From the NCBI GenBank assembly GCA_022821965.1, contig JAJECN010000037.1, forward strand, positions 145,656 through 209,655: a stretch of DNA of 64,000 nucleotides. The letters run 5' to 3'. Shown piece by piece: positions 28,821-30,008 of the stretch (within the stretch, counting starts at the first letter, position 1; each line of letters begins with the position of its first letter). Origin of the DNA: Candidatus Poribacteria bacterium (lineage in GTDB: Bacteria > Poribacteria > WGA-4E > WGA-3G). A program made the position numbers and the translations under genes. Below the pieces are notes generated by a model. It ran no database searches and was not told the origin of the DNA. It saw only the letters and a program-made list of their open reading frames with translations.

Positions 28821-30008
28821 ATGAAATCCTACAGGCAAATCGTTGACGAAGCCAAGACAGAGATCCCAGAGGTAACCATCGATGAAATAAAAGCCGAACA
28901 GGAAGAAGACAGCGATTTCGTGCTACTGGATGTGCGTGATGAAGACGAATATCGCGCCGGTTATATCCCTAACGCGGTTCATGTCACACGTGGCATGCTG
29001 GAATTCTCGATTGAAAACTACATTCCTGATCGAGACCAAAAGATTGTCGTCTACTGTGCAGCAGGTCTTCGTTCTCTCCTCGCTGCCAAGTCGCTTCGTG
29101 AGTTGGGGTACACCGACACCGTCTCCCTTGCAGGCGGATACCGCGATTGGACAGCGGCGGGGTACCCAACGGCTCAAGATAAACCGATGTCGCACGAGCA
29201 GCTCGACCGTTACAGCCGACACTTTATGCTCACCGAAGTCGGAGAACAGGGACAAGCGAAACTATTGGATGCCAAAGTGCTACTCGTCGGCGCAGGCGGC
29301 TTAGGCTCGCCCGCGGGGGTGTATCTCGGTGCTGCTGGTATCGGACACATGGGTATTATCGATTCCGATGTCGTAGAGTTAAGCAATCTACAGCGTCAGA
29401 TACTCCACCGAACAGAAGCGGTCGGCACACCGAAGGTTCAATCAGCAACGACGACAATCAAGTCGCTGAACCCGGACATCAACATCACGCCGTACAACCT
29501 CCGTTTGACTGCTGATAACGTTGAAGAAATCTTTTCGGAATACGATCTAATTGTCGATGGATGCGACAATTTTGCCACTCGCTTTCTCGTCAACGATGCG
29601 GCTGTGTTTATGAATAAACCGATTGTTCACGGCAGTATCTTCCAATTTGAGGGACAGGTATCGCTCTTTAAACCGCACGAAGGTCCCTGCTACCGATGCA
29701 TGTATCCGACCCCACCTCCACCGGGCATGGTGCCCAGCTGAAGCGAAGCCGGTGTCCTGGGCGTGCTCCCAGGCGTAATTGGTGTCATGATGGCAACCGA
29801 AGCGATTAAATACATTATCGGTATCGGCGAACCGCTTATCGGTAGGCTCATCCTCTACGACGCACTCGGCATGACCTATCGCGAGATGAAAATTAACCGA
29901 GATGAGAATTGCCCACTTTGCGGCGATAACCCAACCGTTACCAAACTGATTGATGATTACGAAGCAGCCGCGGAAAATCCAGAAACTTTTGCCCCCGCTG
30001 CCGATTAA
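28821..30008 (+). CDS. Rhodanese-MoeB/ThiF (MoeZ-like) adenylyltransferase/sulfurtransferase; candidate selenoprotein with in-frame UGA at 29739-29741
   Basis: ORFs 28821..29741 and 29763..30008 share one frame. The joined product has an N-terminal rhodanese domain (VVYCAAGLRS), an NAD/ATP loop VGAGGLGS, and zinc pairs CYRC and CPLC. The block PPPPGMVPS-[TGA][14 protein letters not shown] is colinear with MoeZ [17 protein letters not shown]. Alternatives are a pseudogene or a sequencing error. Confidence 0.7.
29756..29773 (+). promoter_or_regulatory. SECIS-like hairpin downstream of the in-frame UGA
   Basis: CCUGGG-CGUGCU-CCCAGG, a 6-bp G/C stem with a 6-nt G/U-containing loop, starts 14 nt after the UGA. 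Confidence 0.35.

Follow-up and report, generated by a model that had tools for sequence, protein, structure and literature searches.

A candidate selenoprotein of the rhodanese–MoeB type in Candidatus Poribacteria, with a conserved in-frame UGA at the crossover-loop cysteine position

Does the TGA codon in the middle of a rhodanese–adenylyltransferase gene of Candidatus Poribacteria end a protein, or is it read as selenocysteine (Sec)? The codon is located at positions 29739-29741 on the plus strand of a 64-kb stretch of contig JAJECN010000037.1 (referred to as the window, i.e., the whole stretch of DNA that was analyzed). It lies in frame between an open reading frame (ORF) of 306 amino acids (28821-29741) and a second ORF of 81 amino acids (29763-30008). 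The gap between the TGA and the GTG at which the second ORF begins comprises exactly seven sense codons (29742-29762), and the joined translation consists of 395 codons followed by a TAA stop codon (28821-30008). A preliminary description had read this arrangement as a candidate selenoprotein, and its account of the two ORFs agrees with both the sequence and the joined translation. The analysis presented here supports that interpretation. The locus is very probably one intact gene of a sponge symbiont belonging to the Poribacteria. It would encode a selenoprotein of 395 residues, with UGA307 decoded as Sec by means of SelA, SelB, SelD and tRNA-Sec together with a hairpin located 3′ of the codon. 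Direct support comes from the conservation of the UGA, its pairing with cysteine in homologues, the translation of the downstream codons, the constraint on the hairpin at the RNA level and the presence of selA in the lineage.

An in-frame UGA in a rhodanese–MoeB gene and its conservation

The complete predicted selenoprotein gene (28821-30008) encodes a rhodanese domain followed by a ThiF/MoeB adenylyltransferase domain and matches the NCBIfam model NF006444 from end to end. With U written as C in the query, the score was 537.2 bits at a curated cutoff of 449, and amino acids 5-384 were aligned to profile positions 4-383 of 387. The MoeZ model NF005902 gave 398.5 bits, which is below its cutoff of 647 and places the protein outside the MoeZ/MOCS3/Uba4 type. 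The N-terminal rhodanese domain (amino acids 21-112, 28881-29156) was identified with Pfam PF00581 (E 2.9e-20) and comprises the active-site loop C79-AAGLRS, with the codon TGT for Cys79 at 29055-29057. This CxxGxRS loop is preserved among homologues, and a HMMER comparison with PDB 6mxv gave 110 and 98 bits for its two rhodanese repeats and an E-value of 5.1e-61 for the whole chain. The ThiF/MoeB adenylation domain (amino acids 131-365, 29211-29915; Pfam PF00899, E 3.6e-85) crosses the TGA and covers profile positions 1-237 of 238. It contains the motif G157xGGxG162 (GAGGLG) and matches the structures of MoeB (1jw9, E 1.1e-57) and ThiF (1zud, E 4.4e-57) in HMMER searches. The sequence by itself leaves no ambiguity in the assignment of the fold. 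Two zinc-binding CxxC pairs enclose the TGA. The first one, Cys290 and Cys293 (29688-29699), corresponds to C169/C172 of ThiF and C172/C175 of MoeB, and the second one, Cys364 and Cys367 (29910-29921), which lies 3′ of the UGA and is present in all loci compared, corresponds to C240/C243 and C244/C247, respectively (HMMER). All motifs that had been quoted for this protein before, namely CAAGLRS, GAGGLG and both CxxC pairs, were thus recovered.

The predicted Sec at codon 307 is part of the crossover loop. In HMMER alignments to structures (1zud, 1jw9, 6yub), position 307 coincides with Cys184 of ThiF, Cys187 of MoeB and the cysteine of the motif TSCGEAG in Chaetomium Uba4, which is Cys202 of that protein. 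This confirms the earlier placement of the UGA on the conserved loop cysteine equivalent to ThiF Cys184. As expected for an E1-like enzyme, the predicted nucleophile is located between the first zinc CxxC pair and the (S/G)EAG motif. The domain content, COG0476/PF00899 with a single UGA, is also that of the MoeB selenoprotein family.

When GTDB was scanned with one genome for each species, 80 loci with 89-95% identity were obtained, nearly all of them from Poribacteria and three titled only 'uncultured bacterium'. Including these 80 distinct species genomes, 86 related loci were compared, and codon 307 is TGA in every one of them. In all 86 the gene is kept over its whole length, and the 3′ frame runs on without a stop for about 88 codons up to the common C-terminus ...AAENPETFAPAAD. 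The comparison included a check for relatives that carry the stop but show no conservation of the codons behind it; instead, the downstream frame is conserved in 86/86 loci. Divergent lineages whose proteins share 71-74% full-length identity with the window protein (L001-4 and L092-L096; related loci are cited by number where they have to be told apart) likewise combine the TGA with an open 3′ frame. Seven further TGA-type genes were found in metagenome contigs of the Joint Genome Institute (JGI), namely L101, L102, L104, L105, L106, L108 and L121. Overall, an alignment of the orthologues, as had been proposed for the Cys/Sec column, showed TGA in 99 of 99 Sec-type copies. The most distant of these lineages share about 56% identity, and in every case the 3′ frame continues to the same C-terminus; such a recurrence of an in-frame TGA is far beyond chance. 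Furthermore, the base directly following the UGA is an A in all 99 Sec-type copies vs. only 7 of the 58 Cys-type copies.

Among the protein-database matches listed, the residue aligned with codon 307 is cysteine in 88 of 89 full-length homologues. These originate from Binatia, Nitrospinota and soil metagenomes and, with one exception, show 54-65% identity. Among the same matches, all 31 homologues shorter than 320 amino acids stop exactly at PPPPG[ML]VP[SG]. The split form also prevails in the annotation. The public record MDE0683062.1 describes a 306-amino-acid 'ThiF family adenylyltransferase', which means that the annotation ends at the TGA, and separate ORFs of 71-87 amino acids, most of them with a ThiF Pfam match, have been called 3′ of the TGA. 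An annotation correction follows from this, as all Poribacteria records examined and the related metagenome lineages divide the gene into a 306-residue 'ThiF family' part and an orphan ORF of about 80 residues.

Decoding of the UGA and alternative explanations

Polymorphism was analyzed across 81 distinct Poribacteria genes. The ratio of non-synonymous to synonymous polymorphism (pN/pS) amounts to 0.096 in the rhodanese domain, 0.047 in the part of the ThiF domain 5′ of the TGA and 0.095 in codons 308-395, so that the region downstream of the TGA (0.095) lies within the range found upstream (0.047-0.096). Codons 308-311 show an amino-acid diversity of only 0-0.07 together with a synonymous diversity of 0.33-0.70. 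They precede the first possible restart codon, which is the GTG at codon 315. Since these four codons vary only synonymously in front of any restart, they must be translated in this frame. Together with the purifying selection on the downstream region this rules out decay of the gene, which had already been considered unlikely on the basis of the intact motifs.

A predicted bacterial SECIS (selenocysteine insertion sequence) hairpin was found at 29756-29773. It consists of a 6-bp stem and a loop of 6 nucleotides (nt) (CCUGGG / CGUGCU / CCCAGG), has a predicted free energy (dG) of -9.7 kcal/mol, carries a G at loop position 2 followed by a U, and is spaced 20 nt from the UGA. According to a 2026 review (PMC13188914), bacterial SECIS elements have a loop of 3-9 nt, a stem of 4-16 bp, a spacing of 16-37 nt after the UGA, a dG of -7.5 or lower and a G within the first two loop positions, and the hairpin satisfies every one of these rules. 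Codons 312-317 (GTC CTG GGC GTG CTC CCA, 29754-29771), each with four- or six-fold degeneracy, show values of 0.09, 0, 0, 0, 0.05, and 0.05 for synonymous diversity, at a gene mean of 0.54, and all other six-codon windows of the gene are more diverse at synonymous sites. They account for six of the gene's eight frozen codons with four-fold or higher degeneracy, and the core of the hairpin is retained even in lineages whose protein identity falls to about 71-74%. The control consisted of 47 distinct Cys-type genes for the same peptide, GVLGVLPG. At the same codons their diversity is 0.59-0.79, and the hairpin core sequence was found in none of the 47.

Different hairpins at the same spacing were identified in the JGI lineages. 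The clade represented by L101 and L106 has the hairpin CCUGGG-AGUUUUG-CCCGGG, the 3′ arm of which lies in another codon register. In L121 the hairpin is GCUGGG-GGUCUUG-CCCGGC, with a swap from C-G to G-C at the base of the stem. The loops of all three hairpin types begin with N-G-U. The L101/L106 clade comprises six of the seven JGI genes and shows 80-87% identity to the Cys-type gene L091 and 63-64% to the window protein; L108, which is cut by the contig end, was omitted from this comparison. The high identity to a Cys-type gene implies recent switching between Cys and Sec. Taken together, these sequences speak for two or more independent switches between Cys and Sec, which apparently involved different hairpins.

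With regard to the Sec machinery, a selA gene was found directly in the Poribacteria locus L079 (2206-3651, minus strand), where it lies directly 5′ of the TGA-containing gene and is divergently oriented to it. Its product is 47% identical to SelA of Escherichia coli over 449 amino acids. Among the matches listed, SelA homologues with 64-98% identity are widespread. They occur on contigs of 5444765, 5507996, 4780840, 5337261, and 5206209 nt, and chromosomes bearing the TGA gene have these same nucleotide counts; the SelA locus of the 5444765-nt contig (OZ242381.1) was retrieved. For Ca. Poribacteria WGA-3G, Table S4 of Slaby et al. (2017) lists COG1921 (SelA) twice, COG3276 (SelB) once and COG0709 (SelD) once, and the WGA-3G contig ASZN01000009.1 (L037) bears an orthologue with the TGA. 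In addition, a 2026 paper names Poribacteria among the phyla with Sec-type group 4 [NiFeSe] hydrogenases.

Several observations weigh against the decoding of UGA307 as Sec or against its catalytic use. Compared with dinucleotide shuffles, the 62 nt following the UGA show no higher stability (z = 0.41). As folding energy by itself is not informative here, the case for the hairpin is based on the conservation of synonymous sites. Within Poribacteria the stem variants are compatible with wobble pairing only, and full covariation was not seen. Moreover, a hairpin passing the rules is present in 14 of the 47 Cys-type genes (about 30%), vs. 66 of the 73 Sec-type genes, and the potential to form it is partly inherent in the coding of LG...PG. 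The search for the Sec machinery was successful only in part. In the window, neither a tRNA (ARAGORN) nor an RNA family (Rfam, gathering thresholds) was detected, and Pfam scans of 40 window ORFs revealed no selA, selB or selD. ARAGORN found no tRNA-Sec in 88 related loci either, the surroundings of selA included. A tblastn search with SelA and SelB of E. coli over all fetched DNA matched only the selA of L079 and no selB. No selB or selD sequence occurs in the fetched loci, so that SelB and SelD are known only from the COG table of WGA-3G. A gene for a sulfur carrier, i.e., a small ORF ending in Gly-Gly, was not found in the 64-kb window. Finally, Cys187 of E. coli MoeB is reportedly dispensable, which means that this position is not catalytic in every member of the family.

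Given that the sequence data show the codon to be translated but not which residue is inserted, a full-length protein made without selenium has to be considered. Cysteine could be inserted by a SelB-dependent tRNA of the tRNA-ReC type, or tryptophan, glycine or cysteine by near-cognate or suppressor read-through. Such an explanation gains some ground from tRNA-ReC-like tRNAs, which have been reported to recode UGA with SECIS elements in some Sec-using genomes (PMC13582414), and from the tRNA-Sec that was located neither in the window nor in the 88 related loci. It is nevertheless unlikely. The only known role of selA is the synthesis of Sec-tRNA, and SelA homologues sit on contigs of the same size as the TGA-gene chromosomes; the COGs of SelB and SelD are tabulated for WGA-3G; and the combination of a Cys/Sec pair with a rule-conforming SECIS element is the standard signature of a selenoprotein. 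General suppression is not indicated, because TGA is the stop codon of 16 of the window's 53 long ORFs. Only two of these 16 have a long in-frame extension, and the two stops cited in the preliminary description as evidence that TGA is an ordinary stop here (2058-2060 and 12333-12335) are genuine ORF ends.

A split or decaying gene, in which a 306-residue protein with a rhodanese and a partial ThiF domain is made and the 81-residue ORF starting at GTG 29763 is translated separately or silent, corresponds to what gene callers and NCBI annotate (MDE0683062.1 and the downstream ORFs of 71-87 residues). This explanation is still less probable, as it has to account for a stop shared by 99 copies, some with as little as about 56% identity, for a 3′ frame that is open in all of them, and for a downstream pN/pS of 0.095. 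The coding pattern of codons 308-311, in front of the GTG, argues against a separate start of the 81-residue ORF, directly 5′ of which the sequence showed no promoter-like site. Moreover, the ThiF/MoeB fold needs the second zinc CxxC pair, which sits 3′ of the TGA. A sequencing or assembly error hiding a true TGC or TGT codon can practically be dismissed, since 80 species genomes that were assembled independently, many of them complete chromosomes, carry the identical TGA, as do contigs from JGI, ENA and Logan. The decoding of UGA307 as Sec in a single intact gene is therefore preferred over these alternatives.

Gene neighborhood

The start codon ATG at 28821 is preceded by a Shine-Dalgarno-like AGGAG (28808-28812) at a distance of 8 nt, as read from the sequence. 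A putative sigma-70-type promoter, TTGACA-17 nt-TATAAT with an extended TG, is located at 28707-28735 on the plus strand, about 85 nt 5′ of the start codon, and was assigned by its match to 12/12 consensus positions. It is part of a back-to-back pair of near-perfect putative sigma-70 sites (28642-28735) with 12/12 matches on the plus and 11/12 on the minus strand. This pair sits between the selenoprotein gene and a divergent gene for a CehA/McbA-type metallohydrolase (27680-28588).

Directly 3′ of the selenoprotein gene, a gene for a zinc-ribbon protein of 80 amino acids was identified (30058-30300, plus strand; Pfam PF13453, E 1.7e-6). A gene of 80-81 codons is found at the matching place in L001, L006, L092, L093, and L096. 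The synteny is conserved also in L001, L092/93, and L096, whose MoeB-like protein is only 71-72% identical to that of the window. The 80-residue protein does not end in Gly-Gly. The neighbors in the window, which besides the zinc-ribbon protein and the CehA/McbA-type metallohydrolase include a heptosyltransferase and a HAD hydrolase, appear unrelated to the selenoprotein, and neither ThiS nor MoaD was found in the Pfam scans of 40 window ORFs. Of three Cys-type homologue contexts that were inspected, only a Binatia locus contains a ThiS-like gene, three genes downstream; this locus also comprises ferredoxins and a pyridine-nucleotide disulfide oxidoreductase.

In two related loci other genes occupy the place just 3′ of the selenoprotein gene. 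These are a DNA methylase and a PvuII-like endonuclease inserted in L094 (4621-6465) and a 903-residue ORF in L079 (5479-8190), which by reading is putatively methylase-like. Such restriction-modification insertions mark a variable spot in an otherwise conserved synteny. Furthermore, the window contains three paralogous FG-GAP/ASPIC-UnbV repeat proteins (31213-32970, 49920-52325, and 56649-58454), and the genes of two of them adjoin TPR or PD40 beta-propeller genes. Members of this family also lie beside selA in L088 and L177, and the family appears to be expanded in these genomes. In the same two loci (L088, 10001-12281; L177, 10001-12222) selA is followed, with a stop/start overlap, by a gene of 270-276 codons with an FGE-sulfatase domain and then by an ABC ATPase gene. 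This conserved pairing of selA with the FGE-sulfatase gene might have a bearing on selenium metabolism.

A second in-frame TGA junction on the minus strand, between a 173-residue ORF without Pfam match (3358-3879) and a gene for a beta-helix protein of 427 amino acids (2065-3348), was considered as a further selenoprotein and rejected due to an ATG located 3-4 codons past the TGA and the unrelated Pfam content of the two parts. The junction at 2065-3879 probably consists of two neighboring genes that are in one frame by chance.

Proposed role and comparison with known systems

The encoded enzyme belongs to the PRK08762 'MoeB' type of E1-like enzymes, which activate a sulfur-carrier protein. 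By homology, its ThiF/MoeB domain would adenylate a sulfur carrier with a ubiquitin fold (MoaD/ThiS/CysO-like) at the C-terminal glycine; this carrier is presumably encoded elsewhere in the genome and may serve molybdopterin, thiamin or cysteine synthesis or the thiolation of tRNA. By analogy with the related enzymes, Sec307 on the mobile crossover loop could then capture the acyl group as a selenoester and/or resolve an acyl-persulfide. The persulfide on the rhodanese Cys79 would provide the sulfur for the thiocarboxylate of the carrier, and reduction of a Se-S bond would finally reset Sec307 and Cys79. For such a relay, selenium at position 307 would be the better nucleophile and leaving group and would be harder to over-oxidize irreversibly.

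The codons for the peptide V-L-G-V-L-P-G (29754-29774 in the window; Cys-type loci L089-L176) are self-complementary, CUGGG...CCNGG. In Cys-type genes the resulting hairpin potential could represent a pre-adaptation for the gain of Sec, and as it is built into the coding of LG...PG, it may explain why Sec arose more than once. A more far-reaching proposal can be made only tentatively. The crossover-loop nucleophile might be catalytically limiting and might have been switched between Cys and Sec at least twice, eased by a 'latent SECIS', and an oxidation-resistant E1-like enzyme with a selenoester/Se-S relay might have become fixed across the sampled Poribacteria.

The locus bears on the debated role of the crossover-loop cysteine in E1-like enzymes, which is reportedly dispensable in E. 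coli MoeB, forms an acyl-disulfide with ThiS in the case of Cys184 of ThiF, and forms a thioester in Uba4. The repeated replacement by Sec, fixed in 80 sampled species genomes, is an argument for a genuine chemical role of the residue in the subfamily with an N-terminal rhodanese domain. The Cys-type and Sec-type proteins also offer a natural Sec/Cys pair for enzymology. With this gene, the evidence for a selenium dependence of sponge symbionts extends to a housekeeping enzyme of sulfur relay.

This kind of selenoprotein has been known since 2005. A 'Molybdopterin biosynthesis MoeB protein' was described as a new selenoprotein family with 11 sequences from the Sargasso Sea (Zhang, Fomenko and Gladyshev, 2005, PMC1088965) and was found again with 19 sequences in the Global Ocean Sampling (GOS) data (Zhang and Gladyshev, 2008, PMC2398784), which bears out the statement in the preliminary description that Sec forms of MoeB-like proteins occur in marine surveys. 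The family is also included in reviews from 2022 and 2026 (PMC9312934, PMC13188914), with MBT7809913.1 (PF00899/COG0476) as an example. These proteins resemble the one in the window in being ThiF/MoeB adenylyltransferases with one UGA, Cys in homologues and a 3′ stem-loop; they are known from metagenome bioinformatics only and are not known to have been characterized biochemically. No mention of Poribacteria members of this family was found in the literature searched. Their membership and the fixation of the UGA in all 80 sampled species genomes appear to be unrecorded there, and the same seems to hold for the correspondence of Sec to the catalytic residue of E1-type enzymes and for the proposed two or more independent Cys/Sec switches with different hairpins.

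Among the Cys-containing relatives, the NF006444/PRK08762 proteins ('molybdopterin-synthase adenylyltransferase MoeB') are the most similar in layout, as they have the same order of N-terminal rhodanese and ThiF domains and the same motifs. The N-terminal position of the rhodanese domain, which had been pointed out as the reverse of the MoeZ/MOCS3 order, is thus real but already curated. Cys-type homologues from Binatia, Nitrospinota and soil metagenomes show 57-65% identity. The Cys-type members examined differ in having Cys as crossover-loop residue, and the codons 3′ of that Cys are not frozen. E. coli ThiF and MoeB correspond to the window protein in their adenylation domain, zinc sites and loop cysteine (E ~1e-57), but both are devoid of a rhodanese domain. 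Uba4, MOCS3 and MoeZ comprise the same two domains and probably use the same relay, and the motif PPPP..(S/T)-C/U-(S/G)EAG(V/I) aligns; however, their rhodanese domain is C-terminal, whereas here it is N-terminal, and they carry Cys in place of the Sec predicted here. In Chaetomium Uba4, Cys202 on the crossover loop forms a thioester with Urm1, which is attacked by the persulfide on the rhodanese Cys397 to yield the thiocarboxylate (PMC7527816).

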